64,000 nucleotides of DNA from a virus (IMGVR_UViG_3300029904_000006:1-64000); one strand, 5' to 3'. Counted from the first letter of the stretch, positions 13,101 through 56,652 are shown. Notes: a model not told the origin generated them from the sequence alone. Translations and numbers: made by a program.

Positions 13101-16100
13101 GACCATTTTTAACATAAACAAAAGAAGTATATTTTGGATTTGATTGACCATTAACAGTCTTACTAAAATCCATATTTAATTCTCCAATATCAGTATATTG
13201 ATTTTCTGGAAGAATATTAAGTTGAGTAGTATAACTAACATTAAGTTTTTTAATAATAGGAATTTCATCTCCATTTTCAATAGCTTGCTGCATTTCATAA
13301 GTCTGCTCATAGTTAGCATTAACTTCTTCTTTCCAATTATTATATCTTTCAGTAAGAGTTTTATAATCGGTAGCAAAACTATTATAGTCATAGTTAGTCG
13401 GGTCATTGACATCTTCTTCACGACCAAAAAATAATATAGCAGCTATTTTACTACTAATATCTCGAGCACGAGCAGTGTCACTATTTTTTACGCCTACATC
13501 AAATTTATATACTTCATTAGCAAGAGCTTGTTTAATATAAGGATTAGACATAATTCGCTCAGCCATATCTTTAGTCATAGCTTGACTAAGAAGTTTTTGA
13601 GCTTCATCAACTTTAAGTTCTCCTCTTTTACGTCTATCAATAATATCTCGAGTTCTAAGATAATAATCAGCTATATCATTAAATAACTGTTTAGCATTAG
13701 CGTCTTCTCTTTCAATAAGAGCTTCAAAAAGAAAATCGCAATCAAGTTTTATTTGACTATCTGTATTATAAAGAACATTAGCAAATCCAGATTGATGACG
13801 CTTAGGTCTAATATGATTACCGTCATTATCAAACTCAACAGCTCTAAGAATACCTATTTTAACAGATTTAGTTTTATTACCTTTTTTATATTCAACAATT
13901 ACGTTAAGATTAGACATAACTTCTTTATGTTCCTCAAAACCATTGGGCTGTGTTTCTTTAACATTGGTATATTGAGGTTCTACATAAATACGAACGGCAG
14001 TACCATTATGAGCAGCTTCAAGAGCTTCTCTATATTCTTTAGCTTGTTGTTTATTTTGTCTTTGTCTAAGTTCAATAGGACTAATATGAAGTTTATCAAT
14101 AGAATTTCTAATTTGAGCTTTATTTTCTCTAAGTTGATTCATAAATTCAACAGCAGAAAGCATAAGTCTATTGACAGTATTAAAACCGGTAAATATATAT
14201 TTACTTCCGTCATGAGTAGCAATATATTGACTAAGATTGTTATAAATATACATTGCGGTTTGAGTATCAACATCTTCATTATTCAGAAGATAATCAAATA
14301 ATGATTCTATATTAATAATAATCTTTCCGTCACCAACAGCAGTATTTTTAACTAATTTAGAATATTCAGTAAGAAATTCATCAACAGTATCATTAAGTGC
14401 ATCTTTAAGTTCTTTATCAGTCATGAATTCAGTTTCAGCATGTTTTTGAGCAGCTTTCTTACTAAATCCAAGAGCAAGTTGTTGAGCAAGTTTACCAAAT
14501 GCACTTTTAGTATTCATTGCTCCAAACAGATTAACTGTTGAAACAAATGCAGTAGCGGCAATCTTACGAGAAAGATTGATATCAAAACCCTGTTTAACAA
14601 GATAATTAACTACTTCATTAAGAAAAGCATCTCGTTTAGAAGTATCACCTTTAGCTAAAGCATCGGTAATTTCATTAAGACGAGCTTCACTTTTAAAACC
14701 AACCTGCATAATATATTGACGAGCCTTAATTTCTCCTCTAAGAGAAGGAGTATCATAAGATTCATCAAGAGGGTCAGCTGAAGTATCTACATCAGTAGGA
14801 TTATGAAGACGATCGTCTCCACCTCCTAAATCTACATCAGTTTGCGCAGGAGCAGGTTTAGGTTGAATAGCAGGTTGTTGAGGCTGAGGTTGAGCTGGTT
14901 GAGCAGCAGTAGCAGGTGCAGCAGATTGAGCAGGTTCTGTTTTCTGTACTCCGCCCGTAGAGGGAGGATTATTTGTATCTGTTGCTTCTTGCTCTGGAGC
15001 AGGAGGTGTACCAACACCTTCTTTTTCAGCTTCAGCGTTAGCTTGATTAGCACCTTTTCTCTTCTTTCTTTCAGTATTTATAATATCATCCATAGTCATA
15101 TTAGTAGTAAATTGTCCTTTACCACCAAGTTGAATATCTGTAGATTCGTCAGAAAGATAACGAAGATAATGAAGAGCCTCATCTACTTTAGCATTACCTG
15201 TATTTTCTGCATAAACTTTATCTAAGGCTTCATCTAAATTGTCAACAGTAGAAAGATAGTTTTTAACTCTATCAAGATACTCATCTCTACGGGCAAGTTC
15301 CATTGCATCCATAGAACGACTAAACTCATTATATAAATCTTCATATTCTTCTTGTGCAGTAGGAATTTGAGAAGAAGTATAGTTACGTTTAACTTCTGTA
15401 TCTATTTCAGCATCTATAAGGTCACGTATAGTTTCAGGCGGAAATGGAGATGTTCTTGCCTTTTGAGTAGCTTTTTCGTATTCAACAATAAAGTTATTAA
15501 AAGATTTATCTAATTCAGCATCTTCTTTACCAAGAGCTTCAGTAAATTCTTTACGAACAGCTTCAAGAGCACCTTGTGCACTATTAGCTTCTGCCCAACT
15601 ATTCCAAGTATCAATAGTTTTATCTATTTCTTTAACTTGTGCTTGATAAGCTGATTCACTTATTTCTTGATTAGCTTTTTGAAGAGAAAGACGTTTCTTT
15701 TGACGAACAAGATTATCTACATGACGTTTATAAGTTTCATACTTTTCACGTTCAGTATAAGCAGAATAATCTGTTCCAGTATCATTTTTCTCAGCAATAC
15801 GCTGATTAATATTAGCAATAGTATCATCATATTCCTGCATTTTAAGTTTATTACGAGTAATATTTCTTGCAGCAGCAATAGTTATAAATGGATTAGTAGT
15901 ATCAGCTAAAGCATCAATATCTTTAAGAGAATTTTCATAAATATCAGAAACTTCGTTCATTCTATCTATTACTTGTTGACTAAGAGCTTTATCATTAGCG
16001 TCAATACGTAATCCATTATTAGTAATATATTGGTCAAATTCAGAACTTCCAAGAACTTCTTTCATAAGTTCAAAAGTACCGTTGTCAATAGCATTCATAG

Positions 16101-20571: not shown

Positions 20572-22185
20572 TTATTTAGAATAAGTTCCACGACGGTTAT
20601 CTTTAAGAGGATAACCTTTTCTATAAGTATCATATTCTTTCTGATTAATAAGACCAGAAGCAAGAAGTTGTTCAGCAGGTAAATTAGGATACGCCATAAG
20701 CATTGCTCTTATAGTTTTACCTTCATTTCTTCTACGTTGTATTTTACTAATAACATCTTGAATACCAGCATTAATATTATTAATCATGGAAATATTATTT
20801 TCAGCTTTTTGTTGAAGAATAGCATTATCAAAAGCAGCTTTACCTTCAGACCACTTATTATAATCCTTAATATTTTCAGCAGCAACAGCTTGCTGATTAA
20901 GTCTATCTTGATTAATAAGTTGAGTTTCAATATTTTCTTTGTTACCAAACAACTCATTAGTTTGAAGTACATTAGCAAGACGAGCACGTTGTTTTCTTGC
21001 AAGAGCAACTTTTGAACTCGAAGTATTATTATCTATTTCTCTTTCATAAGCTGCAAGACTTTCTCGCATTTTATCAAGTTGAGGATTAATATTAATACGA
21101 GTTTTGAGTTTAGTGGCTCTACGTGTAATAGGTTGAGAAGAATATCTCATTCTATCAAGAATACGATTATTAGCGTTACGACCAGCAATAGAAAAACCAA
21201 GATTAGATATAAGACCAATAGCATCTTCTGTTACATCAGGATTTTTTCTTACATAATCTCTTGCAGAAGTATAAGTACGTTTAAGCCAATTAGGATATGT
21301 ACCTGATTCTTTTTGATAAGCAAAGTTAAGTTCTTCTGGGTCGGTAATATTTCTATTACGTTTAGCAAAAGCTCTTGGTACAGAAGATGTATTATTTTCA
21401 ATATTATTAGATGAAGTAAGATTAGGAATTTGTTCATAAGAAGTAAAAGGATTTACTTCAGGAGTAATAGATTGAACTACTTTTTCTATATTTTCTTTTT
21501 TATTACCACCAGTATTATATTTATCTCGTTTAGCAGTTTTAACTGGTTTAGTAGTTGTAGCTTTACGCACTCCGCCCGTAGAAGGAAATGGATATAACTT
21601 TGTTAGTCCATTAACTGTAACTGAATAAAGTCCACCATTACGAGCTTTCTTTCTAAGGTCAGGATACTTACTATAAACTTTAGCTTTAACATCACTACGA
21701 CCATGAAGACCAGCAAGTCTTAATGCATCTCTTGCATCAACTTTAGTAGGAATAGGATAACTTCTATGTCTACCAGCAAAATCTCCAGATTTAACATTTG
21801 GATAAGGCTTAGACTTTGACCCATAATCTTTATCTCTACTTAATCCACCCATACGTTTCTTTTTAGTACCATCATCATTAAGTTTATTACGTTTTTTATA
21901 ACGTTCTTGAGCATTAAAAACAGCATTTGGATTATCACCTTGCATTACACGTTGAGCAGGAGATTTACCATTAAGAAAAGGCTGAGCACTAAATACTTTA
22001 ATTTCATTTTTACCAACATGCATAACTTCACCGTCTTCAACTTCAAGACCAGTACGAGGATTTTTTCCTATATCAATACCACCGGTTTTATGTTTACGCC
22101 CAGACATATAATAGTAGTTACGTCCAAGAGGAATAGCAGTTCCACCACGTACTACATTAGGTTTGCGAACTTTACGAATAGTCAT
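20572..22185 (-). CDS. 537-aa highly basic protein with repeated x-G-G-x-x-K patches, function unknown (virion-internal candidate)
   Basis: ORF track. The N-terminal half is K/R-rich. It is preceded by a 118-nt intergenic region carrying the 18-nt leader repeat, and it contains one motif copy (FPSTGGVRK). Confidence 0.75.
   Translation of the reverse strand: MTIRKVRKPNVVRGGTAIPLGRNYYYMSGRKHKTGGIDIGKNPRTGLEVEDGEVMHVGKNEIKVFSAQPFLNGKSPAQRVMQGDNPNAVFNAQERYKKRNKLNDDGTKKKRMGGLSRDKDYGSKSKPYPNVKSGDFAGRHRSYPIPTKVDARDALRLAGLHGRSDVKAKVYSKYPDLRKKARNGGLYSVTVNGLTKLYPFPSTGGVRKATTTKPVKTAKRDKYNTGGNKKENIEKVVQSITPEVNPFTSYEQIPNLTSSNNIENNTSSVPRAFAKRNRNITDPEELNFAYQKESGTYPNWLKRTYTSARDYVRKNPDVTEDAIGLISNLGFSIAGRNANNRILDRMRYSSQPITRRATKLKTRININPQLDKMRESLAAYEREIDNNTSSSKVALARKQRARLANVLQTNELFGNKENIETQLINQDRLNQQAVAAENIKDYNKWSEGKAAFDNAILQQKAENNISMINNINAGIQDVISKIQRRRNEGKTIRAMLMAYPNLPAEQLLASGLINQKEYDTYRKGYPLKDNRRGTYSK
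21575..21583 (+). repeat. CCCGTAGAG-family motif copy, long form with one core mismatch (CCCGTAGAA)
   Basis: cgCACTCCGCCCGTAGAAGGaaa. Read as P-S-T-G-G-V-R-K. Confidence 0.85.
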
Positions 22186-22906: not shown

Positions 22907-25900
22907 ACAAATTCAGAATTAGTAAGTTTTATATCAATAGACTTATATTCTATTTGTTTATTAGTATTACAAGCAAAATAAATAACAAACCAATTACCAT
23001 ATATTCGACTACTTTTTGTTGCATCAATTTCACCATCAATATATTCTTTTAGTTTATTACGAATAGCATTAAAATGATAATTTCCATATCTCCAATAAGG
23101 TTTTGTATAATCCATTACTTTATTTATAGTATCTTCTGGATTAGTATATGAAATATCAATAATGCCAGTATTACAAAACTCAGAATAAATTTTAATAAAA
23201 TCAGTAGCATAATACATTGTTGTTCCCTCTACGGGCGAATAATCGTTAAACAATACTTTATCTATTTTACTGATATTATAATTAATACATTCAATAGTAT
23301 TTATATTATAATTATTAGGATTAATAATAATAGATATATTAGAATTATTATATTCATCATTATTATATTTAAGAATATTATTTATTTCATTATCTATTAT
23401 TTTATCAACAATATAAGTAATTTCTTTAGTAGACCAACCTCTATAAAAAGTATAAGAATGACGAGAAATAAAAGTATCAGTATTATAATTATAACTTAAT
23501 ACTATATCTTCGTCATTATTATTAAAGAATCTAAATAGTATTCTATTTCTTAATTTATCATCAACAAGATAAACATCATAATCTTTAAGTTTATATAGTA
23601 AACCTATAATATTAGAATCAATATAAAATATTTTACCATTATCATATCTATATATTCTTTTAGCATCAGCATCATAAAATATATATCCAAATTCTCCGAT
23701 TATACCATTATATTCTTTTTGTATTCCGGCAAATCCTAAAGAACTTGTTACTACTTCTTTATAATTTATATCCCAAATATCAATAGAAGCTAATTGAATA
23801 TCTTGTTCATTACTTTTAATAGCATTAGTATCATTAAATAAAAACATACTATATTGAGTATGTACAATAAAATAATATCCAATAGAAACAAGTTTAACTA
23901 TATTACCTTTATTTTCAGTAATTATTTTATAATTATCTATTTCAAATTTACGCCAACTTATTTCATTACTTTCATCTTGAATAACATTACTTCTTCTAAT
24001 AGTTTTAGTATAATCATTAGTATAATTAACAGTAGCATCGTACCAACTTAATGTTTTGGGATATGAATCATAAACAGTATTATTTTTTTGTTGAAATAAA
24101 TCAATAGTATTTTTAGCTTCAACTATAAGTCCAACAGCAAAAGATTTTTCATATTCGTCAGTAGTATCTAATCCTGTAAGAGGAAAAAATTCAACAGTAG
24201 GTTTATTATTTATTTGAATACTTTCAGCAGGAATTTCGATAGGAAAATCAAATAGATAACTATGACATGGTTCTGCAACATAATCAGAACTTCCAGCAGT
24301 TTGAAAATATTTAATAGCATCATTAAAATAAGTATCTTCTTCATAAATTAGTGCCTGCTGAGTACTAATAAAACAATTATTTATATTTAAAATATTATCA
24401 GTATTTATAGAATAACTAACAGGAGTACAAGGAATAAGAGTTTTATTATATTTATTATAATAATCATTAGAGTTCTTTTTATATAGCATAACTATATATG
24501 GTTTACCTCTTTGTAGAGTACCAATTCCTTGACAAGTAACAGATAGATTAGTACTACCTCCAATATTATTATAACTATCTGCTACAAATAAATCTTTATT
24601 AGCTACTGTATAATCTGTACTACTTAAACTATTAAGACTACAAATACTTTGTGCATCTCTTCGTTCATCATCAACATTAATATCATCATATAGTCTTAAA
24701 GTATCAAAATCAAAATCTATATAATCGTCATAATTAAATCTGTCATTATAAACTTTGATTCCATAAATAGAACTTGCATAACCTCCAATAACAATACCAA
24801 AATATTTTACTCTTGTTTCTACTTTTTCATAACTTGCATACCATCCAATATATTCATATGGAATAGAATCTATATTAATATATCCTTTAATAACATTTTT
24901 AGTAAAATCAAAAGATGGATTAAACATTATAAGTTTATTTCCAATATTATTAACTAAAATTTTAATATCTTCTTTTTTAATATAAACATTAAAATTACTA
25001 ATATTTATACCTAAAGTAGAATTACCATATTTATCAACAAAATGAATAAATATATTATAATAAGTAAAAGGAAATATACTACAAGTATTAAGTTCATAAT
25101 TAGAACCTTCAAAGAAAGATGTTGGAATAATATTATAATCTATACTTAAATTTATATTATTACAAGCAATAGCAATTTCTTTTTCATTATTATTTTCTTT
25201 ATAATTACCAATATATAATCTATTTTTATTTATACACATAGATTTTACATTATAGTAATTATAATAAGTAGAAATCAAATCAGCAACAGAATATTCTTCT
25301 AAATTATTAATATTAAAAGTAGTATTTTTAGTATTAATATCTAAATCAGAAGTTTTATAACATCTCGTAGAAGATTTAGTAACATTTATAAATCCTAATT
25401 GATATTTATTATATAGGTCAGTATTATTATTTATTTCTACATTAAAGCTAACTTTGCTAACATCTAATTCGTTACTGAAAGTATAATATATTTCTGTATT
25501 TATATTTGGAACTCTATCTCCAGAAACTCCTGTATTGCCAGTAAGTTCTCCGCTAATCCAATAATCAAAAAACGAAGTAGATTTATAATCATCAACAAAT
25601 ACATTAGCATTTAAATCAAACCATTGAGTATATGTGGAATCACTTATTTTATATCTTATAAATATATAATACCATCCTTTATAAGCATTACCATTTACAT
25701 ATTTGATAGCAGCAATAGGAATTTTTACTTCAGGACAAATACTATGAAGTTCTTTTTTATTTAATTGATTAATATCATCGGTAGAAATATTTTCTTCAAA
25801 CTTACCAAAATTTATAACTTTAATAGGAATTTTTTTACTATCATCTTCAAAATATTCACTAATTGCAATTATTAAATCATTATGATTATAAGTAAATTCT

Positions 25901-26241: not shown

Positions 26242-27093
26242 TTAACGTCTTGTATCAAAAGTATTAATATAGAAATTACTTCTAAGAATCTTAGTAATAT
26301 CTTCATCGCTATCAAACTTGTTAGCAATAACACTACGACGAGCTTCTTCTTTCATTTGAGTCCAAATATAATAAGGATTAGTTCCATATTGAGAAGCATT
26401 AAGATTAAACACAGGATGTTTATAACCTCGACATAGCATTTTATACATACAGAAATAAACAAGAGCTTCAATTAATAAACCATTATTAGGAATAACTGGA
26501 AGTTCATATCCAAGACTTGTATGCTCAGTTTTTATAGCATCATATTCAATAGTAATACAATCAGTATCAAAATTTAATTCAATTTTATTACAATCGACAA
26601 GAACATAATTACGTTCTTCAGTATTACGTTCTCCAAGATAAAATTCATTAACACGATAACGACCAGGCCACTCTTTATCAGCATTAAGAGTTTCTGCAAC
26701 AAGATAATTAGGAGTATCTGCAATAGGATTATTCGATTCATACAGACCAGCAGATTTAGAAAATTCTGTCGTTTCAGACTTTTGCACTCCGCCCGTAGAG
26801 GGACAATTACATTTAAAAGTTGTTTCTCTAGCTTCTTTTATCTCGCAACCATTAGAATCATATACCTTAATATTATTATTGCTAATAGGACAAGGAGAAT
26901 TAGCAATTCTATCTATAATAGCAAGTTTTATTTTCTTACGTTCAAGACAAAGACAATCCAACATAGACATAGCATCTATACACCAAGCACCAACACGAGG
27001 TATCCAATCGCTATTATCAGGATTAAAATCATTGTCAATCTTAGCTATTATGCGCTCCACGTTGGTATTTACATTGTTCAGCATTGCGGACAT
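26242..27093 (-). CDS. 283-aa structural-module protein, function unknown
   Basis: ORF track. The start at 27093 (or the Met at 27084) overlaps the upstream gene by about 44-53 nt. It contains one motif copy (CPSTGGVQK). Confidence 0.75.
   Translation of the reverse strand: MSAMLNNVNTNVERIIAKIDNDFNPDNSDWIPRVGAWCIDAMSMLDCLCLERKKIKLAIIDRIANSPCPISNNNIKVYDSNGCEIKEARETTFKCNCPSTGGVQKSETTEFSKSAGLYESNNPIADTPNYLVAETLNADKEWPGRYRVNEFYLGERNTEERNYVLVDCNKIELNFDTDCITIEYDAIKTEHTSLGYELPVIPNNGLLIEALVYFCMYKMLCRGYKHPVFNLNASQYGTNPYYIWTQMKEEARRSVIANKFDSDEDITKILRSNFYINTFDTRR
26792..26800 (+). repeat. CCCGTAGAG-family motif copy, long form (plus)
   Basis: ttGCACTCCGCCCGTAGAGGGaca. Read as P-S-T-G-G-V-Q-K. Confidence 0.95.
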
Positions 27094-27988
27094 AATTTAA
27101 ATACTTTGTTGGGTCTTTATATAATAGGATATTAAGTTTATATTTAATATCCACTTGAAGATTATAAATATCTTCTTCAGTATGACAAAGTTCATCAGCC
27201 ATTTGCATATAGGACATTCCTCTATATTTCTTAGCAACATATTCAGTGCGTTGATAATCATAACTACCAGTCTTAACTATTTGAGGTTTCAGAAAAGTAA
27301 ATTCATACCAATCTGTATTCTCACGCCAAACACGATAATCGACACCGTTATAGGGAATTTTACGAGCATCGTACCAAGCAGCTTCTTTTTCATCATAAAG
27401 TTTAACACCTTGAGCAAGAAGTTCTTTCTTACGAGCATTAGTAGCTGAATAATCAAGATGAACTTTACGTTTCATTTTAGTAGCATCAAGTTTCCAATGA
27501 TTACATACATAAGTACCAATGCCATAAGAAAACTTATATCCCATACCTTGCAATACACATTTATGTACTTTAATATAATAAGCAGTAACATATTTACGAT
27601 ATTCACCAAATTTAAGTTTCTTACGTTTCTCAGTAAGAACAATCATTCGACGACATCTATGTTCTACACGAAGTATGTTACAATATTTAATAACTTGAAG
27701 TACAATAATTCTATTAGGATGTTCTTCTATATGTTGTAGAAGTTTAATAAGAGTATTATAAAGATGTTCTTTAGGATTATATTCTTTTTTAATCCACTCT
27801 ATTTCATAAGCATTAAGATTGATATTAAAATCAGATTTAAGAACATCTTTATGGTCATCAATATATTCATAACATTTATCTTTAGCTGTAATAGTTAAAT
27901 CAAGTTTATTTTTGTACTTGTCTGCATCAGTTTTGGCATTATGAATAAATTGAAGATAGAAATCTTTAATAGCAATATCTGGTAGCAT
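27041..27988 (-). CDS. 315-aa protein, function unknown
   Basis: ORF track; compact same-strand arrangement. Confidence 0.8.
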   Translation of the reverse strand: MLPDIAIKDFYLQFIHNAKTDADKYKNKLDLTITAKDKCYEYIDDHKDVLKSDFNINLNAYEIEWIKKEYNPKEHLYNTLIKLLQHIEEHPNRIIVLQVIKYCNILRVEHRCRRMIVLTEKRKKLKFGEYRKYVTAYYIKVHKCVLQGMGYKFSYGIGTYVCNHWKLDATKMKRKVHLDYSATNARKKELLAQGVKLYDEKEAAWYDARKIPYNGVDYRVWRENTDWYEFTFLKPQIVKTGSYDYQRTEYVAKKYRGMSYMQMADELCHTEEDIYNLQVDIKYKLNILLYKDPTKYLNYVRNAEQCKYQRGAHNS

Positions 27989-27997
27989 AGTAATATT

Positions 27998-28681
27998 TTA
28001 TCTTATAATATTAGCAGAAGGAACTTCATTAGTATCTCTGATAACATTAGGATTCCAAGTTTCAAGAATAAGTTTCTTAACAGTACTAATCATATCTTCA
28101 GGAAGTAGAAATTCATCATTATCATCTATGCTATCTATATCTAATTTTCCATCAATAGTTTCAGTTTGAATAATGTGAGGATATTCAAATACAGATTCAA
28201 CAATGATAGCACCAAGATTTTGAAGTTTATTATCTTCAGGAATATTAACATAAATATATTCGTTAATATAATCATAAGTAATTACAGGACACATTCCCGG
28301 AAGTTTAGCATAATAACGAGAAGATGCTTCTTTAACAAAAGCAATTTCCATAGTATTTCTTACTCCAGCAGTACGAACTGAATGAAAAGAAAGATTATTA
28401 AGCAGACGTGTAGGACGAGGAACTTTATTAGTAGTTCTTTTAATTCGTTCTTTAATAACATCTTGAGAATCAGCTAAATCTCCATCTGGAACATCAGTAA
28501 GAGTAAGTTTAAATCTCTGTTGTAGAACTTTATCGGTGTAATTATGATTGCCATAAGTACGACGTATAGCTTCATTACGAGCATGAATTATACCAAGTTT
28601 AATAGCTCTACGAACAGGAATACTGTCAGGTTGCTTCATAGAATGAGCAATTTCAGAAACAAGTTGATTAATCGAACTCAT
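27998..28681 (-). CDS. 227-aa protein, function unknown
   Basis: ORF track. It is the first gene downstream of a terminator plus a host-type -7 box. Confidence 0.8.
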   Translation of the reverse strand: MSSINQLVSEIAHSMKQPDSIPVRRAIKLGIIHARNEAIRRTYGNHNYTDKVLQQRFKLTLTDVPDGDLADSQDVIKERIKRTTNKVPRPTRLLNNLSFHSVRTAGVRNTMEIAFVKEASSRYYAKLPGMCPVITYDYINEYIYVNIPEDNKLQNLGAIIVESVFEYPHIIQTETIDGKLDIDSIDDNDEFLLPEDMISTVKKLILETWNPNVIRDTNEVPSANIIR

Positions 28682-28728
28682 ATCAGCAATAAGTTTAATA
28701 ATAAATATATAAATACAATTATTTTCTA

Positions 28729-28736
28729 CAAATATA
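28729..28736 (-). promoter_or_regulatory. Bacteroidota-type -7 promoter box (TAnnTTTG)
   Basis: Minus-sense TATATTTG, about 48 nt upstream of the ATG at 28681 and just after a strong terminator. The -33 element is not clear. Confidence 0.4.
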
Positions 28737-28780
28737 ATAGTTTTATCTAAAAGACCAACGGCTAACCTATAATTTTGTTC

Positions 28781-28824
28781 AAAAAAAATTGCAGCAGCAT
28801 TATCATTAAGATATGCTACTGCAA
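28781..28824 (-). terminator. intrinsic terminator after the 140-aa gene
   Basis: 12-bp stem (28789-28800 pairs with 28813-28824, with one G.U) and a 12-nt loop, followed on the minus strand by U8 (plus-strand a8 at 28781-28788). Confidence 0.75.
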
Positions 28825-28843
28825 TAATAATAAGATAAACATA

Positions 28844-29266
28844 TTAAACTATTTCATACCAATCAATCGGAATACCATTACCAATCATAGTTTGCATCCA
28901 TCTACGAAAAGTAGTACCAGCATCAGCATCAATATCATCTACTGTATCTTTTATATAAAGAGCAAGATGATATTCATCTTCAATAGAACTTCCAAGATAA
29001 TCAGCTTTACACATAGTAGCAGCAAAAACATAATCATACATTATCTTATTTTTAAGTTCTATATTATGTTTAGCAAGAAGTTCATCAATATAATCTTTAG
29101 TATAAGGTTCTACGGTTTCTTCACGATTAGTTTTAGGATTACGCTTTTTCATAAAACTAACAGCATAATTATAAGCTCTCTTATTAAAATGAAAACCGTA
29201 ATTACTAATATACCTTTTCATTCCAACAGGCATATCATCATATATATCTAATGGTGTATGTTTCAT
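28844..29266 (-). CDS. 140-aa protein, function unknown
   Basis: ORF track; bracketed by two terminator-like hairpins. Confidence 0.8.
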   Translation of the reverse strand: MKHTPLDIYDDMPVGMKRYISNYGFHFNKRAYNYAVSFMKKRNPKTNREETVEPYTKDYIDELLAKHNIELKNKIMYDYVFAATMCKADYLGSSIEDEYHLALYIKDTVDDIDADAGTTFRRWMQTMIGNGIPIDWYEIV

Positions 29267-29270
29267 AAAT

Positions 29271-29304
29271 ATAAAAATAAAAATAGGAGCATTTCTGCTC
29301 CTAT
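29271..29304 (-). terminator. intrinsic terminator after the 77-aa RGG gene
   Basis: 9-bp stem ataggagca/tgctcctat (29283-29304) with a 4-nt loop, then minus-sense TTTTATTTTTAT. It lies 10 nt after the stop at 29315. Confidence 0.7.
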
Positions 29305-29314
29305 CAATTACTTA

Positions 29315-29548
29315 TTAATAACGACCATAACGACCTCCACGAGCATAACGGTTTCTACCGCCTTGACGATACATATTTCTACCTCCGGCTGCGTACTCAT
29401 CTCTCTCTTCTTCATCGTCATAATCATAATCAGAACCACCTTTCATATCTTCAAGACATTCAGCGACTTTACTAAGACACTTAATACTCTTTCCAATATG
29501 TTCCATCATATTATCAATCTTATCTTCACTAATTTCTATCATATACAT
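29315..29548 (-). CDS. 77-aa protein with acidic centre and C-terminal RGG/RNxY repeats (nucleic-acid-binding candidate)
   Basis: ORF track. Contains DYDYDDEEERDEY followed by GGRNMYRQGGRNRYARGGRYGRY. Confidence 0.7.
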   Translation of the reverse strand: MYMIEISEDKIDNMMEHIGKSIKCLSKVAECLEDMKGGSDYDYDDEEERDEYAAGGRNMYRQGGRNRYARGGRYGRY

Positions 29549-29549
29549 A

Positions 29550-30041
29550 TTATTGTCCTCCTTGTTTTACGTTCATCATTTGAGACAGCATAGCTTTAAT
29601 ATCGTTAATACCATGTTCCATATTACCAACTCTATTTTCAAGATTATTGAGTTTATTCTCTTGTTCTTTTTCCTTAGCATATTTAGGATTAAGTTTAGCA
29701 AAAATCTCATCTTGACTTTCGATAACAGCTTTATGATAATCTATACTTTCAAGAGCTTGCTTACTTGTTTTAACGGTTCCTTCAAATTCTTTTGTCATAT
29801 CTTCTGCATTATCAGAAATAACAATTCCAGCAGAAGGACTAAGAATAGATATATTAGTAGGAATCTTTTTGAACTCATAAACTTCTCCATTAACATCTAC
29901 CTTGATGTCCATTTCTTGATTAGCAAGACCATAAAACTGTGGATTAACTTTGGCTTCAGTAACTTTACCTATTTTAAGAACAGGTTTATTATTCTTATCT
30001 AAGATATAGAATAAGCTATTTTGTCCTAATGTACTAAACAT
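29550..30041 (-). CDS. 163-aa protein, function unknown
   Basis: ORF track; 1-3 nt spacing to its neighbours. Confidence 0.8.
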   Translation of the reverse strand: MFSTLGQNSLFYILDKNNKPVLKIGKVTEAKVNPQFYGLANQEMDIKVDVNGEVYEFKKIPTNISILSPSAGIVISDNAEDMTKEFEGTVKTSKQALESIDYHKAVIESQDEIFAKLNPKYAKEKEQENKLNNLENRVGNMEHGINDIKAMLSQMMNVKQGGQ

Positions 30042-30044
30042 AGA

Positions 30045-30374: not shown

Positions 30375-30377
30375 AAT

Positions 30378-31346: not shown

Positions 31347-31417
31347 AACTTTACTTTTTAGATTAATAATTAAATTAATAATATTGTAACCGATTACAAC
31401 CTAAAAGTAAGAATGAA

Positions 31418-31425
31418 CAAAACTA
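31418..31425 (-). promoter_or_regulatory. Bacteroidota-type -7 promoter box (TAnnTTTG)
   Basis: Minus-sense TAGTTTTG in the 157-nt intergenic region, about 72 nt upstream of the ATG at 31346. It is flanked by two 6-bp hairpins (31384-31399 and 31480-31496). Confidence 0.4.
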
Positions 31426-31503
31426 AAATAGGTATAATTACAATTTTACCTGTAACTATGCCTATATTAATACTTTACGTTGTGAGATAATCACAATATC
31501 AGT

Positions 31504-32362: not shown

Positions 32363-32365
32363 AAT

Positions 32366-36967: not shown

Positions 36968-36970
36968 AGT

Positions 36971-37718: not shown

Positions 37719-37728
37719 ACTTTAAATA

Positions 37729-39717: not shown

Positions 39718-39718
39718 A

Positions 39719-41857
39719 TTATTCTTGTATTACAGAAACAGTAAGTGCAGCAATAGAAATAATATCTTGTTGTTGCTCAGAATTTAATTGATTCCATATA
39801 CTTTGTTGAATATATAAATTAGCGCATTGAACAACAAAACTCATACTATTTACAAAAGCATCTATATCAAGTTTTTTACATCCTGTTAAATCTATTGTAT
39901 TAACTCTAAATTTTTTATCAGCATCAGATTGTAGTCTAAAATAAACAAGTTCTTCACAACCATTACAATCTATATTTCCTGTATACCAATATCTATTAGA
40001 ATAATTTATATTAAGATTAACTGATGTAAGTTTCTTTAGATTACTAAAATAATAATAAACATTATAATTTTGATTATTGTCATAGGTAGAAATATTAAGA
40101 TGAATATTAGGACACTTAGTCATATTAGTATTTCCTCTAAAATCAATAATGTTAGAACTGGTGTCTCCTAAATCTATATAAATATCTTTATAATACCAAT
40201 GACAATTTTCAGTAAAATCAATAGTAGGAATATTATAAAAAGGATTCAGTTCTCTATTATAACCATCAAGTTGTTTATAATCAAGATATAATGTTTGCTC
40301 AGGAACATTATTTATAATAGTAGAACCACTAAAATTAATATACTGATAAGGTGTACCATCTTCATTATATTGATAATCAGGATTATGAAATATATAAGGA
40401 AAATTTTTAGGAGTATCACTTGTTACATTAGTAAACTCAATATTCCTTAAGCAATCAAAGTTCTTAAAATCAATATCACCTTCAATATAACAACTATTAA
40501 ATTGACCACTACTTTCAACAATAGTCTTATTAGGAGAAAAATCAAAACTAATACCACCTAAGAATCTACAATTAGAATAAATCCCAGTAGTAGTAGTAGT
40601 AGTAGTAGTAGTAATAGGAGGTAATGTATCAAACTCATTATAAGCAAAAGTATAATTCATACTTGTGCATCCAGCAAAATTATCAGATACATTAAAATTA
40701 CAAGTAGCAAATCCAACTCCTTTAATATTATAATTAGTTATACCACTATCGTTAAACCAAGTCTCTTGTACTCTATTTGTTAAATGTACATTATTATTAG
40801 ATTCTTTACCTAATATATTCCTAAAAGCATAATCAAGATTATACTGACCACTAACACCAAGATTGATAGTGAGATTCTTGTTTCTTCCATAACTAGCACT
40901 ATTATAACTACCAATAGAATCAAATAAACCAGTTAAATCAAGAACTTCTTCATCATGATTTACATTACTTAAATCAAGACTTATTACATGAGGATTATCA
41001 TCATTTCCACTTGGATAAAAGAAAACAGCTCCACTAAAAGCATATCTCCAGCTCTTAATATTATTAATAGTATCAGCAGTAAAATAATCATTAATATTAA
41101 TAGATGGGGCTTTAAGATTAGCCCAATGAAAACCAAAGTCAAGTAATTCAAGTAATGGAGCATTAAGAATAAAATTATCTTCTATCCAAGCACCTTTAAC
41201 AAATCCTTTAGCAGATATAAGATTAGGCATAGAAAGATTAATTCCTTCAGTAGAATCAACAATCTTAAATCTATTACAGAAGAACATTTCTTCTGCACTC
41301 TTTAAAGCAGGATAATCAGCTTGATTTAGTGTAAGTAATGGAGCATAAGTATTTTGATATTGAGTAGAAGTAAATATTGTATTAATATTACTAATCCTTT
41401 TATAAGCTCTATCAGCAGTAACTATATTACTTGTATCAAAACTTTCAACAGTAGTAATTTTATCTTGACTATTCAGAAAATCATTTATATGATATAATCT
41501 ATTACCATCAATAATAGACCTTACAGTATTAGTTTCTTTTACCTTATAAAGATTTCCTCCATGAAGAACTTTATTATTATAAGTATAATCATTCCATTCC
41601 CATCCAAAATAACCCCAGACAATCTCTAAGAAGAACTTAGTCTTAGTAACATCACTATCCCAATATTTCATAACATATTCATTATCATTATTGGTAGTTC
41701 TATGAGAAGGATAATAATCCTTCTCATTTTCTGGTAATTCATTTGGACTTTTAATAACAGAATAATTCACTTCCTCAAATGTAGATTCTTTTGCAGTATA
41801 ATCTGATTCATTATCAAATACTGTAAGATATTTATGTTCATAATGAGGAATATCCAT
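39719..41857 (-). CDS. 712-aa tail fibre/receptor-binding candidate with poly-Thr linker
   Basis: ORF track. Repetitive F..C...L-type segments (possibly LRR/BspA-like, uncertain). Thr9 is encoded by an (ACT)9 microsatellite. Confidence 0.45.
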   Translation of the reverse strand: MDIPHYEHKYLTVFDNESDYTAKESTFEEVNYSVIKSPNELPENEKDYYPSHRTTNNDNEYVMKYWDSDVTKTKFFLEIVWGYFGWEWNDYTYNNKVLHGGNLYKVKETNTVRSIIDGNRLYHINDFLNSQDKITTVESFDTSNIVTADRAYKRISNINTIFTSTQYQNTYAPLLTLNQADYPALKSAEEMFFCNRFKIVDSTEGINLSMPNLISAKGFVKGAWIEDNFILNAPLLELLDFGFHWANLKAPSININDYFTADTINNIKSWRYAFSGAVFFYPSGNDDNPHVISLDLSNVNHDEEVLDLTGLFDSIGSYNSASYGRNKNLTINLGVSGQYNLDYAFRNILGKESNNNVHLTNRVQETWFNDSGITNYNIKGVGFATCNFNVSDNFAGCTSMNYTFAYNEFDTLPPITTTTTTTTTGIYSNCRFLGGISFDFSPNKTIVESSGQFNSCYIEGDIDFKNFDCLRNIEFTNVTSDTPKNFPYIFHNPDYQYNEDGTPYQYINFSGSTIINNVPEQTLYLDYKQLDGYNRELNPFYNIPTIDFTENCHWYYKDIYIDLGDTSSNIIDFRGNTNMTKCPNIHLNISTYDNNQNYNVYYYFSNLKKLTSVNLNINYSNRYWYTGNIDCNGCEELVYFRLQSDADKKFRVNTIDLTGCKKLDIDAFVNSMSFVVQCANLYIQQSIWNQLNSEQQQDIISIAALTVSVIQE
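40586..40612 (-). repeat. (ACT)9 trinucleotide microsatellite encoding Thr9
   Basis: Plus strand (agt)x9, in frame (PPI-TTTTTTTTT-GIY). Confidence 0.95.
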
Positions 41858-41861
41858 AATA

Positions 41862-42620
41862 TTATTTATTTTGTAGTTCTGTTATAGCCATTTCATGTCT
41901 TGCAAGAGCATTAGCAGTAACTCTTTCATTATCTTTAATAGCAGTCTGTAATTCAGTAATATACTCACCAATTACATCATCAAGAACTTCCTTGATATAG
42001 TTCTTTATAGTAGTAGCACCTTCTTCACTATTGAAATAATTATTAACAGCTTCTTGTATATATTGAGGAACTATCTTATTAAGTATCTCCATGATAGTTT
42101 CATCAAAATTACCACTTTCAAAATAATTATTGACTATCTCCTCAATACTATTATTAATGATTTCAACTAAATCAGGGTAATCTTTAAAGTTTTCAAATAT
42201 CTCTTGAATAATCTTTTTAATATCTTCAAGAAGACTATCAAAATCCCATGCTTCCCAATTCTCATCAGCTTTCCAAGCCTCATCAGATATACTATCTTCT
42301 CCTTTATATCTTTGAGTCCAAGTATAATTATTAAGGTCTCTGAAAGTAACAATAAGACCTTTTCTTCTCATATCTATACCAACTTGAAGTCTTGTATCTT
42401 CAGTAGTTCCATTAAAAGGAAGATATATAGCATTACATAAAGCAAGAATCTGGTCAAGTCTTGTTCCTGTAAGTCCATCGTAAATAGCTTGAATTACACT
42501 AACAGGAAAAACATCTTTATTCTTAAACTTATTAACAGCGTCATCTGTAACTATCTTAAATAGCTGCTGTATTGTAGTAGCATCATATCTTATACATAAA
42601 TCATTCATAAAGCATTCCAT
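41862..42620 (-). CDS. 252-aa fibre-associated protein sharing the N-terminal adaptor module
   Basis: ORF track. TTEDTRLQVGIDMRRKGLIVTFRD..NWEAW aligns with TIEETRLLIPTYLRRFGLWISYED..NWEIV of the 1282-aa fibre. Confidence 0.55.
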   Translation of the reverse strand: MECFMNDLCIRYDATTIQQLFKIVTDDAVNKFKNKDVFPVSVIQAIYDGLTGTRLDQILALCNAIYLPFNGTTEDTRLQVGIDMRRKGLIVTFRDLNNYTWTQRYKGEDSISDEAWKADENWEAWDFDSLLEDIKKIIQEIFENFKDYPDLVEIINNSIEEIVNNYFESGNFDETIMEILNKIVPQYIQEAVNNYFNSEEGATTIKNYIKEVLDDVIGEYITELQTAIKDNERVTANALARHEMAITELQNK

Positions 42621-43912
42621 TTATTATTCTTATAAACTTCATACACAGCAGTATCTTTATTATATCTTAATTGACCAGTACGAAAATCACCATTAAAAGT
42701 AATATTATTAAATTCATCAAGAACACCAAAAATATCTTTTACATAAGCATTATTTAGATTTATAATTCCTCTATTTATAGAACCACCTTCAAAAAGCAAA
42801 ATACAATTTTCAGGAATAGTAATTTCTTTATCATTTAAACAATAATCATATCTAATTACATAAACAGTATTTGGAGTATTAATCATAGATTGTTCAAGAA
42901 GATTAATATCGTCAGTCATATTTCTTCTTAATATAACATATCCATAACCAGTAAATTTACCTTCTTTATATTCTCGATTAGCAAACTTTAATTTATTATC
43001 TTCAACAGTTAAATCTTCTTCATCAGGAAAATTAGTTATATTTCCACCAGAAGAAAACATTTGTTTAATACTTTCAGATAAATCATCCCAAACAATACTA
43101 CCATCAGGTATATCCAAATTATTAATTTGATTTATAACTTCTTTTATAATAGCATTATGTAATCCACTTCGAGTTATATAAGTATCATGAATAATATTAC
43201 CTAAAGCATCTTTAGTAGCTCTATCAGCATAAGTTTCATCTAAACGAGTTTCAAATTCACCAGCATCTCTTGAATAAATAGCTTTATATTTATTAGCAAA
43301 AGCAAATGCAGGAGTTTGAGTATTTTTCCAATTACCATTCTCTACGCAAACATAAAGAATAGCATTATCCATACTTTCACCAACAAAAGCATAATCACCT
43401 ATTTCTGGATGAGGAACATTATTTATAAGAAGACATTCATTAAGAAAATAACCTTTAAACTTATCAATGTTATCATAAATACTTATCCAACATTCAAGTT
43501 TATTCCAATCATCAATAGTATCAGAATTAAACTGATAAAGGAACCATTCAGCTCCTCCATCTTGATTAGATGGATTAGTACCATAAAAACCAAGAATAAG
43601 TCCGGGTCGTTTGTCTTCTGTGTTAATAGTAGCAATAGCTGTTTCAAGAGTATATCTAACAAGTTCATTAGTATTTGGGTCAATATCAGAAAGAATAATA
43701 ATATTATTATCTCTATATCCGCCAGAACCAATAGGTTGCCAATACTCTTGATTTTCAATACTTACTCCAGTGGGTACATCTTTCTTAGCAATATAACTAC
43801 GACCTGTAATAGGATGTGTAACTATATCTATACGTTCATAAGTATTTGCTCTTGTCCAATCGCCAGCAGGAGTAAGACAAACTTTACCAAGATTTTTATA
43901 AGCAGGTTTCAT
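42605..43912 (-). CDS. 435-aa tail fibre/spike protein
   Basis: ORF track. N-terminal GDWTRANTYERIDIVTHPITGRSYIAKKDVPTGVSIENQEYWQPI follows a fibre/CBM-like motif, followed by the shared adaptor. The C-terminal GYVILRRN..VIRYDYCL..ITIPENCILLFEGGSINRGIIN is homologous to residues 174-246 of the 1282-aa fibre. Confidence 0.65.
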   Translation of the reverse strand: MKPAYKNLGKVCLTPAGDWTRANTYERIDIVTHPITGRSYIAKKDVPTGVSIENQEYWQPIGSGGYRDNNIIILSDIDPNTNELVRYTLETAIATINTEDKRPGLILGFYGTNPSNQDGGAEWFLYQFNSDTIDDWNKLECWISIYDNIDKFKGYFLNECLLINNVPHPEIGDYAFVGESMDNAILYVCVENGNWKNTQTPAFAFANKYKAIYSRDAGEFETRLDETYADRATKDALGNIIHDTYITRSGLHNAIIKEVINQINNLDIPDGSIVWDDLSESIKQMFSSGGNITNFPDEEDLTVEDNKLKFANREYKEGKFTGYGYVILRRNMTDDINLLEQSMINTPNTVYVIRYDYCLNDKEITIPENCILLFEGGSINRGIINLNNAYVKDIFGVLDEFNNITFNGDFRTGQLRYNKDTAVYEVYKNNKWNAL

Positions 43913-43918
43913 AAAATT

Positions 43919-43936
43919 ATTAGTTATTATGACTTA
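43919..43936 (-). repeat. 18-nt leader/promoter-region repeat, copy 2
   Basis: Plus strand attagttattatgactta, 6 nt upstream of the ATG at 43912. Identical to 22201-22218. Confidence 0.9.
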
Positions 43937-44055
43937 TTTTCGGGCTATTTGACTGTCTTTTGCTTATAGCTTATAAATAGTATCGTAAAGTATATCCGAA
44001 AGCTCATACAGCTAATAATAGCTAAATACAGCCGTTTTTGTTAGTATTGTTGGCA

Positions 44056-44628
44056 TTAACCATTGTACTTGCCCGTAGAGGAATCAATATCAATATCAGT
44101 CTCACTTGTATCAGTAGAAATCAAATCATTATCCTTAACAGTATAAACTTTACCATCATCTTTACTTTCAAGATATTGCTCATAAAGTTCTCCAGTTTTA
44201 GTATCCACTATAAACTTAACATCATTGCCACAACTAACCATAGCTTTAAGTTTACCATCTTCAGTTACAGCAAGAGGCACAGTAGACTTATAAACAGTCT
44301 TACCTGAGCCTTTATATATAAGCTCAAGTTGTTTTTTAATATAATCAATAAAGAACTCAGCTTCTTTGTTACGACCTAAAGTACGACAAGCAATAGCAGA
44401 CTGAAACAAGTTCCAACAAGTAATAATATTTTTACTATTTCCTTTACATATAGCACTACAATCATCAACGATAGTTTTACCAAAGTCAGCCATATACGTC
44501 AAAAGTTTGTGATAAACACAAACATACTCAGCGGGAATAGTAAGATAAACATATTCAGGATTAATTTCCTTATATGATTCTTGTTCCTTATCAGCAAGGA
44601 CATGAACTTCATTATAGCTATCCGACAT
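44056..44628 (-). CDS. 190-aa protein, function unknown
   Basis: ORF track. The last codons (DSSTGKYNG) are built on a motif copy. Confidence 0.8.
   Translation of the reverse strand: MSDSYNEVHVLADKEQESYKEINPEYVYLTIPAEYVCVYHKLLTYMADFGKTIVDDCSAICKGNSKNIITCWNLFQSAIACRTLGRNKEAEFFIDYIKKQLELIYKGSGKTVYKSTVPLAVTEDGKLKAMVSCGNDVKFIVDTKTGELYEQYLESKDDGKVYTVKDNDLISTDTSETDIDIDSSTGKYNG
44072..44080 (+). repeat. CCCGTAGAG-family motif copy (plus)
   Basis: tgtacttgCCCGTAGAGgaatc. It lies at the 3' end of the 190-aa gene, 159 nt before the ATG at 43912. Confidence 0.9.
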
Positions 44629-47224: not shown

Positions 47225-48376
47225 TTAAATATTATTAAGTCTGTTCAAGTAAGCATTTACAACAGAAGCATTAACAGGGTTCTTAAACCAAGCAACAGCT
47301 TCTTTCATATTTGCTCCAATGAGGTCACCATCAGCAGTGGTTATATTCTGATTATATTGCAGACGAGTAAGTTCACCACGAGCGATAAGCATTTCAATCT
47401 GAGCAATTAATTTATTGTCTTTGTTATTAAAGATTCTGTTAAACTTATCCGGATGTTCAGTACTAAATTTATCCAGCTTAATTTCTCTTTCAAGTCTATC
47501 TTCTGCAAGAGAAGAAATAACTGGAAAATTATTAGCAAGACAATACTGAATATAAATAGCGTCAAAGAGTTTGTCATCAGCAAGACAAGCAACATAGTTA
47601 GCTTTAGCACGATTAACTTGCTGACGGAAATCTTGACGTTTCTTAGCTTCTTTGACATCATCTTTGAAGTAGAACCTAACAGAAGCATCTGCATTAACAA
47701 GCGCAACATCTTTCGCAACATCATTGTACAAAAGACAATGGCGATAAAGCAGATAATCAGACATATTCAGAGGATAACCATACTTATGTTTAGTTCCTTC
47801 AAGAGCATTAAGAGCATTAATTTTAATCTTAAGAGCTTCACGAAGTTTCTTAGTAGTAGTACGGTCAGCTTTCTGATATTCTTCTTCTATTTTAGTTTCC
47901 TCAGCATGAATTCTGTCATAATCTTTTTTATGATAATAAAGAAAAGAAGTATCGAAAGTACGTCCAAGTTCATCAACACTAACTCGAATGTTATTGAGAT
48001 ACTCTTTAACTCTCATTACAAAATCCGGGTCATTAACAGAACGACCGACGATATTAGGAAAATACGCTTCAACCTCTTGTTTATTAGCTGCAAGAATTTG
48101 AGAAGATTGAACACAACTACCAATATAATCCATTTTCTTAGGAAGAACTTTGTCGTTAGCTTTACGATAAAGACTATAATTCTTAATAAGCATGATAGTT
48201 ACACTACGGCGGTCAGTATATTCTAATTCTCCATAATCAATATCTTCAGCAGTAGCTTGCGGCTTAGGTTGTTCCTCTACGGGGGAGGGCGTGTTATCTA
48301 CTTCTGCTTTATTTGCACCAGCATCAGCACTTGCATTACCGATTCTAAAACTGGCTTTAGCATCATTGTTATCCAT
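47225..48376 (-). CDS. 383-aa head-module protein, function unknown
   Basis: ORF track. It lies immediately downstream of the MCP. The disordered N-terminus carries a motif copy (SPVEEQPKP). Confidence 0.75.
   Translation of the reverse strand: MDNNDAKASFRIGNASADAGANKAEVDNTPSPVEEQPKPQATAEDIDYGELEYTDRRSVTIMLIKNYSLYRKANDKVLPKKMDYIGSCVQSSQILAANKQEVEAYFPNIVGRSVNDPDFVMRVKEYLNNIRVSVDELGRTFDTSFLYYHKKDYDRIHAEETKIEEEYQKADRTTTKKLREALKIKINALNALEGTKHKYGYPLNMSDYLLYRHCLLYNDVAKDVALVNADASVRFYFKDDVKEAKKRQDFRQQVNRAKANYVACLADDKLFDAIYIQYCLANNFPVISSLAEDRLEREIKLDKFSTEHPDKFNRIFNNKDNKLIAQIEMLIARGELTRLQYNQNITTADGDLIGANMKEAVAWFKNPVNASVVNAYLNRLNNI
48275..48283 (-). repeat. CCCGTAGAG-family motif copy (minus), C-variant flank
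   Basis: Plus strand gttcCTCTACGGGggaggg. Read as S-P-V-E-E. Confidence 0.8.
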
Positions 48377-51237: not shown

Positions 51238-51396
51238 ATCTATAAGTATTTAATGGTTTAATAACATTACAATTATAACAATAAATAATAGTATCAGCAA
51301 TATAACGAACAACAAAATACCTAAAACTTATAGTAACTCCAACATTATTATATATACTGCTTCTACCAGTTTAATCTAAAATGCTCTATTTCCTTG

Positions 51397-51405
51397 CCCG
51401 TAGAG
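51397..51405 (+). repeat. CCCGTAGAG-family motif copy (plus), intergenic
   Basis: tttccttgCCCGTAGAGggactttt. It lies in the 327-nt portal-to-scaffold intergenic region, 159 nt before the ATG at 51237. Confidence 0.9.
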
Positions 51406-51488
51406 GGACTTTTGCATCAGCCAGACTTATAACTCATAATTCAATAAATTTAAGTCAAATATCGAGCTATAATTAGCTTATAAACGGC

Positions 51489-56241: not shown

Positions 56242-56652
56242 TTATTTAGCTATAAGACCAATTATAAGACCTGCAACAGCAGCACCTGCACCATATCCAA
56301 TAATCTTATTTTTAGTCTTTTGTTTTTCTAAGTCTTTCTTAACCGCTTCGTTAAGTTTATTAGCATCAGCAATTCGTTTTTGAAAATCAGTAATAATTTT
56401 CTGTTGTTCATTAATATATTTATCTTTCATAATAATAACAGAATCTTGTTCATTAGTAATACGAATTAAATAATTACGTTCAATCATCTTAGCATTAGCA
56501 AGACGAATATAACCAATATTAATCGTTATAGTAGTATCTGATTTTAGCACTCCGCCCGTAGAGGCAACACTATCATTAAGGTGCTGTGCATAGCTTTTTA
56601 AACAACTTAATAGCAGCACTATCACTAAGCTCAAAACTTTCAGTAACTTCAT
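56242..56652 (-). CDS. 136-aa envelope protein with N-terminal signal/lipobox-like sequence and C-terminal TM (unimolecular-spanin-like topology)
   Basis: ORF track. MKLLKVLSLVIVLLLSC has a possible lipobox (LLSC). The middle is a coiled-coil, and the C-terminal IIGYGAGAAVAGLIIGLIAK is hydrophobic. It lies next to the endolysin and contains a motif copy. Confidence 0.35.
   Translation of the reverse strand: MKLLKVLSLVIVLLLSCLKSYAQHLNDSVASTGGVLKSDTTITINIGYIRLANAKMIERNYLIRITNEQDSVIIMKDKYINEQQKIITDFQKRIADANKLNEAVKKDLEKQKTKNKIIGYGAGAAVAGLIIGLIAK
56555..56563 (+). repeat. CCCGTAGAG-family motif copy, long form (plus)
   Basis: taGCACTCCGCCCGTAGAGGcaa. Read as A-S-T-G-G-V-L-K. Confidence 0.95.

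Follow-up and report, generated by a model that had tools for sequence, protein, structure and literature searches.

The window analyzed here, the whole stretch IMGVR_UViG_3300029904_000006:1-64000 of 64,000 nucleotides (nt), comes from a crAss-like phage in which genes for TerL, the portal, the tail fibre and the ring proteins are recognizable and the gene order matches that of CrAssphage LMMB of the genus Carjivirus. In the human gut, the crAss-like phages of the Intestiviridae outnumber all other viruses. All genes of the window from position 1 to ~60.9 kb lie on the minus strand, and positions 1-10099 are the end of an open reading frame (ORF) of more than 3366 codons. Dispersed through these genes and the gaps between them is a short, GC-rich DNA motif, which is the subject of this analysis.

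The original prediction described four near-identical copies of this motif that encode one peptide in four otherwise unrelated proteins. We found the 17-mer ACTCCGCCCGTAGAGGG exactly at 14948-14964 and 26786-26802 and with one mismatch at 21569-21585 and 56549-56565, all on the plus strand; 100 shuffles gave an expectation of zero matches. The four sites are real, although their positions had been given with a shift of 0-1 nt. They share one frame, lie antisense to minus-strand genes and encode PPSTGGVQK, FPSTGGVRK, CPSTGGVQK and VASTGGVLK, respectively, and comparison of the four proteins returned only short local matches seeded on the motif. The set is, however, only a part of what is present. 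Further copies of the 17-mer with up to two mismatches lie at 506 (minus), 11429 (minus), 60241 (plus) and 60898 (minus), three of the four being on the opposite strand, and the core GCCCGTAGAG occurs 16 times in the window with at most one mismatch (9 plus, 7 minus), compared to 0.47 expected. The four copies are thus a subset of at least 16 in the window, and the motif proved to be genome-wide and family-wide. The window consensus is 5'-ACYYYGCCCGTAGAGGRA-3', and the position matrix describes an 18-nt motif, A-C-Y-Y-Y-G-C-C-C-G-T-A-G-A-G-G-R-A. The 16 copies are read as P-S-T-G (6), P-V-E (4), A-R-R (2) and L-Y-G (1), with 3 outside large ORFs. Across 65 related loci (1.32 Mb) we counted 336 copies, and the most over-represented GC-rich words there were all variants of CCC-R-T-R-R-A-G-G.

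Four window copies fall within the large ORF (>3366 residues) at the left end. The long form ACTCTGCCCGTAGAGGGA at 505-522 (minus) is gene-sense, is read S-A-R-R-G and is conserved in the related locus L018; the short form AACTTGCCCGTAGAGGGA at 1047-1064 (plus) is antisense to the gene and gives P-S-T-G-K; ACCTTGCCCGTAGAGGAA at 4706-4723 (minus) is gene-sense and gives L-P-V-E-E; and the C-variant ACCTCCCCCGTAGAGAGA at 7172-7189 (plus), read L-Y-G-G, is the sole antisense copy of the window that is not in the S-T-G frame. The gene for a 2562-residue RNA polymerase (RNAP)-associated protein carries a degenerate gene-sense copy, ACTCAGCCCGTAGAGAGA at 11428-11445 (minus; Q-P-V-E-R), whose orthologue in L010 matches better with ACCTCCCCCGTAGAGGGA. 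The same protein holds, in a disordered linker, the first of the four copies originally described, a long form at 14948-14965 (plus), where P-P-S-T-G-G-V-Q-K corresponds to P-S-S-T-G-S-I in LMMB. The weak or partial copy AACTTGCCCGTAGAGATG at 15282-15299 (minus; A-R-R-D) is gone from more distant orthologues and is possibly decaying or a chance match. The second originally described copy, ACTCCGCCCGTAGAAGGA at 21569-21586 (plus), lies in a variable linker of a 537-residue protein, and CCC TCT ACG GGN is kept in orthologues of 49-75% amino-acid identity. At 23224-23241 (minus), TATTCGCCCGTAGAGGGA is gene-sense in the gene for a 1111-residue homologue of the 'stabilization' protein (S-P-V-E-G); its core is kept in L050, to which the flanks are 67% identical. 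The third originally described copy, at 26786-26803 (plus), is in the gene for the 283-residue tail ring protein 1, with C-P-S-T-G-G-V-Q-K at the site of P-S-S-T-G-G-Q in LMMB.

Towards the right end, the short form TACTTGCCCGTAGAGGAA at 44066-44083 (plus) is read S-S-T-G-K close to the C-terminus of a 190-residue protein, and the C-variant CCCTCCCCCGTAGAGGAA at 48272-48289 (minus) is read P-S-P-V-E-E in a 383-residue protein (I-P-P-V-E-D in LMMB). The copy TCCTTGCCCGTAGAGGGA at 51391-51408 (plus) is intergenic, between the portal gene and the next gene, and is conserved in L009 and L021. The fourth originally described copy, at 56549-56566 (plus), lies in the gene for a 136-residue lipobox/transmembrane protein upstream of TerL and is read A-S-T-G-G-V-L-K; the LMMB counterpart reads H-P-P-R-G-V with a motif two bases shorter. 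Between the genes at 59651-60175 and 60300-60845 lies ACTCTGCCCGTAGAGGAA at 60241-60258 (plus), a copy that is also contained in a possible 27-codon Cys-rich frame at 60178-60271 (minus) with a GTG start after GGAGAGG. The last copy, ACTCTGCCCGTAGAGGGA(GAATTATTGT) at 60897-60914 (minus), is next to the point from which the two gene arms diverge, and a 28-nt match to it recurs in more distant contigs. It occupies the 3' end of a 46-residue ORF at 60885-61025 (minus), which ends in …S-T-L-P-V-E-G-E-L-L* and is called as a gene in public assemblies.

The constraint at these sites acts on the nucleotides. The window genome has 31% GC, and the codons supplied by the motif are rare in it (CCC, 6% of Pro; ACG, 3% of Thr; GGC, 7% of Gly; GTG, 3% of Val), and these rare codons are frozen at every copy. 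Outside the motif the window holds only two S-T-G tripeptides, both in the ordinary codons TCT ACT GGT/GGA. In IMG/VR contigs 70-95% identical to the window the motif sits at the same positions without any indel while the flanks diverge, and identity to orthologues is 92% over the motif core and 74-78% over the flanks. In particular, all homologues of the 537-residue protein read CC[CT] TCT ACG GG[CG], and the residues that follow are variously GGVRK, GKIKK, GESAA and GEDML. The orthologue comparison, which had been set as the test in the original prediction, thus did not return a conserved peptide with freely varying codons but the opposite, and the nucleotide-level retention that had been proposed is borne out. 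The similarity said to extend past the motif (x-K-[ST]) is real in the window genome but is not kept in orthologues, where the K becomes Q, W or C. A different behaviour is seen for CGTGCTCG, which encodes R-A-R and has six window copies (4455, 5655, 8043, 13463, 20981 and 51725); because these are all gene-sense and use common codons, we regard it as a peptide- or codon-level repeat, the opposite of the motif.

These comparisons bear directly on the two explanations offered at the outset, an in-frame mobile cassette analogous to palindromic elements and a peptide recognized by a maturation protease or used as a packaging tag, both of which are contradicted and hardly credible. The four original copies do share a frame and a similar 9-residue peptide, 128 of the 129 antisense copies in the related loci (~10-12 independent sites) are in the S-x-[TM]-G frame, and a zincin protease domain is annotated in the LMMB RNAP-associated protein. 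An insertion, however, is seen at no site in the orthologue alignments, in which the orthologous positions are conserved. The sole clear presence/absence case (window ~28236 versus L056) is of equal length with ~12 of 18 positions substituted; sites arise by substitution or patch replacement and not by insertion. Rickettsia palindromic elements and mitochondrial GC clusters likewise form GC-rich islands in genes of AT-rich genomes and are read in frame, but they are palindromic insertions with presence/absence polymorphism, hairpin-forming and from tens to over 100 nt long in the case of the Rickettsia type, whereas the motif is non-palindromic, has a conserved block of 18-28 nt and bears no marks of a Rickettsia palindromic element. 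A peptide signal cannot account for a single DNA word that is read in three frames, occurs in either orientation and also turns up in non-coding DNA, and the peptide drifts while the codons stay frozen: at one orthologous site A-S-T-G-G-V has become H-P-P-R-G-V with each genome keeping its own form of the motif. The shared peptide P-S-T-G-G-V is a by-product of the DNA motif in its best-tolerated frame, and it recurs in unrelated proteins because these take up the motif, mostly in linkers, in whichever frame does the least harm. The sequence data show a cis-acting nucleotide motif, genome-wide and family-wide, under strong purifying selection on its DNA sequence. Known structural RNAs do not account for it, as the window gave no Rfam match at gathering score and no tRNA with ARAGORN.

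The motif occurs in lineage-specific forms, or dialects. The clade of the window uses CTYYGCCCGTAGAGGGA / CTCCCCCGTAGAGGGA (16 copies in the 64-kb window), Bacteroides phage crAss002 uses TTCCCCCRTARAGGAGY (25 copies in 93 kb; 11 plus, 14 minus), LMMB of the p-crAssphage genus uses a form of ~24 nt, TWKACYCCCCGTRGAGGATGGA (29 copies in 98 kb; 16 plus, 13 minus), and further lineages have forms with GTAGGGGA…. The 100-kb genome of crAss001 (Steigviridae) contains no copy of the motif and no comparable word. On the genomes compared, the motif is family-wide in the Intestiviridae, including the prototype human-gut crAssphage. Cross-genus orthologous sites each follow the dialect of their own genome: between the window and LMMB, ring protein 1 has CPSTGGVQ versus PSSTGGQA, the RNAP-associated protein PPSTGGVQ versus PSSTGSIA, the 383-residue protein PSPVEE versus IPPVED, and the small protein upstream of TerL ASTGGV versus HPPRGV, the last because the two bases missing from the LMMB motif shift the frame on one side. 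Since the motif is asymmetric and all sites of a lineage have changed together, it is probably read by a co-evolving factor that the phage itself encodes. A 43-nt query around the copy at 60898 retrieved no crAss record from GenBank phages, because the dialects differ. A full-text search for the motif strings, or for any description of such a crAss motif, found nothing within the library searched, and the 2023 Crassvirales review makes no mention of one; within these limits the motif appears to be undescribed.

All dialects have a common layout around the shared core CCC-R-T-R-R-A-G-G, in which the dinucleotide R-T separates an upstream pyrimidine tract of ~7 nt from a downstream purine tract of 7-11 nt that starts with an invariant purine. 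The purine fraction is at least 0.8-1.0 over the 7-11 nt from the base after the T, and variation within a genome consists exclusively of transitions. The conserved block measures 18-28 nt and is asymmetric and non-palindromic. On the complementary strand a stem of 3-4 G:C/G·T base pairs (bp) is always possible, enclosing a 5-nt loop of T-Y-T-A-Y or T-C-Y-A-C, whereas the motif strand is unable to fold in this way; pairs 1-3 are Watson-Crick or G·T at 148-152 of 152 distinct sites on this strand and at 40-152 of 152 on the motif strand.

With respect to transcription, the copies in the related loci divide into 167 sense, 129 antisense and 40 intergenic; the two gene arms of LMMB hold 12 sense copies and 15 antisense ones, in nearly equal shares in each arm. 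Three genomes together have 70 copies, of which 54 (~77%) are inside ORFs and 42 (~60%) are mid-gene; the remaining 16 are intergenic compared to 4.5 expected, a ~3.5-fold enrichment. The sense copies in the loci use the two stop-free frames, and because the sites sit in variable or low-complexity linkers we read the frame preference as amino-acid tolerance. The density is ~1 copy per 3.5-4 kb across the whole genome on both strands, and the spacing is more even than random (coefficient of variation, CV, 0.62 and 0.66). In LMMB this evenness holds within each orientation class (plus, CV 0.44, P 0.0004; minus, CV 0.42, P 0.0014), and permutation of strand labels indicates that the two classes are interleaved in LMMB (P 0.0003) and in the window together with L051 (P 0.0017). 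Even, interleaved orientation classes, as seen in two of three genomes, suit a polar signal that is needed in either direction along the DNA.

The motif resembles several known dispersed genome signals and fails at least one testable defining feature of each. In cluster A mycobacteriophages, stoperators follow the direction of transcription and are found chiefly in intergenic DNA. They are similar to the motif in comprising ~25-35 genome-wide copies of an asymmetric 13-14-bp site that one phage protein reads, and differ in that the motif has a ~50:50 orientation and ~77% of its copies inside ORFs. The same distribution speaks against a promoter or terminator, used by the host RNAP with a phage factor or by a phage RNAP, which we consider highly unlikely. 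The motif does have a T7-like look, in that a recognition block precedes an initiating purine and the start is rich in purines; it is enriched between genes, and a few close inverted pairs would form long hairpins at operon ends. About half of the copies, however, oppose the genes and ~60% are mid-ORF, most have no inverted partner, and the middle and late promoters known from crAss-like phages resemble those of sigma-70.

Equal use of the strands (9/7, 11/14 and 16/13 in the three genomes) likewise speaks against site-specific nick sites of the kind found in T5, phiKMV-like and tf/LUZ24-like phages, a very unlikely explanation since all described cases are on one strand only. As with the motif, those sites are dispersed, follow an asymmetric consensus (7-19 nt) and recur at similar positions in related phages, and the authors of the tf study suggested co-evolution of nickase and site. 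Numerically equal orientations unrelated to gene direction, dialects that suggest a co-evolving protein and the even overall spacing would all agree with a non-polar duplex binding site, at which a phage protein would serve compaction, organisation of replication factories or global regulation and for which orientation would be irrelevant. Such a site predicts neither the even spacing within each orientation class nor the strongly asymmetric pyrimidine/purine architecture, and we regard it as unlikely. Nor did we find a DNA-binding candidate: genes annotated as 'IHF / histone-like' in records of relatives (27041-28681, minus) were considered as an IHF-like reader and rejected, as they match crAss tail ring proteins 1 and 2, and the older annotation is misleading. 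In the window, the 283-residue protein is tail ring protein 1 (PF24228) and the neighbouring 227-residue product matches tail ring protein 2 (PF25702).

DNA uptake sequences (DUS of Neisseria; the uptake signal sequences, USS, of Haemophilus) share many features with the motif: a short core with weaker flanks, orientations equal in number, a mostly intragenic location in frames with tolerated peptides, occasional inverted-pair hairpins after genes, lineage dialects, and an origin of sites by substitution and not insertion. They differ in number, with hundreds or thousands of sites compared to 25-29 copies per genome, and the motif is in a phage without uptake machinery and has its orientations interleaved at even spacing. 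Uptake sequences are bound by a DNA receptor of the competence machinery, and an uptake process is neither known nor to be expected for phage genomes.

Polarity, over-representation and a dispersed distribution with a spacing of a few kilobases are also features of Chi. In a Chi-like system a helicase-nuclease or exonuclease entering from a DNA end would read the polar sequence and either curb degradation or switch to recombination, and permuted genomes would need the signal everywhere and in both orientations, so that bidirectional function would explain the interleaving. The asymmetry of the motif, the 16 copies versus 0.47 expected, the even interleaving and the overall spacing of 3.4-3.7 kb, near the density of Chi in E. 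coli, agree with this explanation, as does the prediction that motif-bearing crAss002 is circularly permuted whereas motif-free crAss001 has fixed terminal repeats. The motif-bearing phages moreover encode a PD-(D/E)XK exonuclease, RecT and an SF1 helicase. Among the alternatives to the mechanism that we favour, a Chi-like role comes first, but we find it doubtful. Known Chi sites are 5-8 nt long, are read by RecBCD/AddAB of the host and are enriched in its chromosome; the motif is 18-28 nt. The dialects differ among phages of the same host genus, which makes a host enzyme an unlikely reader, and a scan of 185,579 genomes with the crAss002 dialect gave, among the matches listed, scattered single hits in unrelated taxa and no Bacteroides cluster, so that the motif is not seen to be shared with the host. 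The phages carry Gam-like nuclease inhibitors, and a phage RecBCD/AddAB-like complex was not identified.

The best overall explanation, to which we assign a probability of roughly 70%, is a dispersed cis-acting DNA motif of the Intestiviridae that is probably polar and would have a co-evolving reader. For its mechanism we tentatively favour the initiation of RNA primers or transcripts on a single-stranded template. The motif would be a start site for RNA synthesis, either of replication primers or of transcripts of the phage's own polymerase; on the complementary strand, a mini-hairpin clamped by G:C/G·T pairs would display a YTA or CCA start trinucleotide in its loop, the invariant purine after the T would be the first base copied, and the conserved purine tract would form the first 7-11 nt of the RNA. 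DnaG-type primases initiate at trinucleotides of the CTA or TTA type, and their primers are ~11 nt long. Such sites would be needed on both strands in circularly permuted genomes that replicate by recombination. In line with a single-stranded template, a crAss-like virion RNAP is active in vitro on single-stranded or denatured DNA only; no upstream motif is shared by its early transcripts, and it is not known to have a promoter motif. Annotations of Intestiviridae genomes list a DnaG-family primase and no DnaB-type helicase, whereas those of crAss001 list both.

Two precedents are the G4 origin, used by DnaG, and the hairpin promoters of the N4 virion RNAP, which are polar, act on a single-stranded template and present the start in a small hairpin, an architecture with which the motif is compatible; a further shared feature would be a phage-specific polymerase that works on single-stranded DNA. 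These signals are few and local, however (one origin or three early promoters), and have longer stems. A still more speculative extension is that the Intestiviridae encode their own addressing system, in which ~25-30 polar signals of 18-28 nt, interleaved evenly on both strands, would be read on single-stranded or unwinding DNA by a co-evolving phage enzyme that starts RNA primers or controls end processing. Such a system would allow replication to begin at any end of a circularly permuted genome that has no DnaB-type helicase.

Several points weigh against a polar start signal. One site per strand per 6-7.5 kb is sparser than usual Okazaki priming, and DnaG-type primases are not known to need more than trinucleotides, far shorter than a motif of 18-28 nt. 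The stem of 3-4 bp is weak, and the asymmetry in hairpin formation is not independent evidence for structure, because any C-tract with a purine tract behind it will show the same asymmetry. In crAss002, permutation of strand labels gives no significant interleaving (P 0.45), the three genomes analyzed share some orthologous sites, which makes the tests partly dependent, and a tendency to avoid direct repeats side by side could also give alternating orientations. Two phages underlie the association of the motif with permuted genomes. The Intestiviridae primases have no Pfam match, and the primase/helicase argument relies on the annotation of the depositors. Finally, Pfam scans of the small ORFs at the arm junction and of replication proteins were uninformative and revealed no reader, and comparing gene presence and absence with crAss001 by BLAST did not narrow the choice either, as crAss001 lacks matches to the majority of Intestiviridae genes.

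A strictly conserved signal of ~25-30 copies per genome that prevails over codon usage in essential genes suggests that a central, hitherto undescribed DNA transaction depends on it. The motif offers an experimental handle, as bait for its reader, and crAss002 provides a cultivable motif-bearing system. In annotation, islands of P-S-T-G, P-V-E and P-R-K-G that recur across unrelated crAss proteins reflect the DNA and are not protein motifs, and the dialects are potential lineage markers.

Most copies of the motif are solitary, and each genome has 1-3 close inverted pairs. Convergent pairs that would form long hairpins are located in crAss002 (L121) at 64742-64785, with a 19-bp stem, and in LMMB at 23112-23150 and 28270-28375 (L123) and 96605-96735 (L124); they are found at the convergence of the gene arms, following the Gam-like gene and upstream of the two RepL genes. 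Long hairpins or terminators were rejected as the nature of the motif, as most copies are without an inverted partner. Intragenic invertons were also rejected, since each inverted pair in the two giant genes, when flipped in silico, adds 1-304 stop codons.

At position 21576, identity between the window and L055 (IMG/VR 3300045988_056906) rises from ~72% to ~97% within ~30 nt of the motif at 21569-21586, and this step may be a recombination end-point at the motif or simply mark where a conserved domain gives way to a variable linker. Change-points in identity lie at a median distance of 590 nt from motifs, compared to 917 nt for random positions (P ~0.045, the change-points not being independent). 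Recombination break-points at motifs in general were set aside, as other sites show no step and linker/domain boundaries confound the comparison.

The 136-residue product at 56242-56652 (minus) had been called an envelope protein, a designation for which we found no support. It is encoded between TerL and the genes for a GH108 lysozyme and a peptidoglycan-binding protein, carries a lipobox-like sequence (…LLLSC) at its N-terminus and a hydrophobic helix at its C-terminus, and its only Pfam match is to ETRAMP, below threshold. From these features it looks like a unimolecular spanin.

A 17-kb stretch of the window, 26800-44070, is free of the motif and spans ring protein 2, small genes and the tail-fibre module, with a GC content of 26-28% between 36 and 44 kb. 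A module that was exchanged recently and has yet to acquire the signal would look like this. In the divergent intergenic region of the two arms (61130-61304), an alternating purine/pyrimidine array of ACGCAT / TACGCACATACA units at 61140-61190 adjoins an AT-only tandem array (ATATA / 17-29-nt units) at 61208-61304, and this region is a candidate origin or promoter region.

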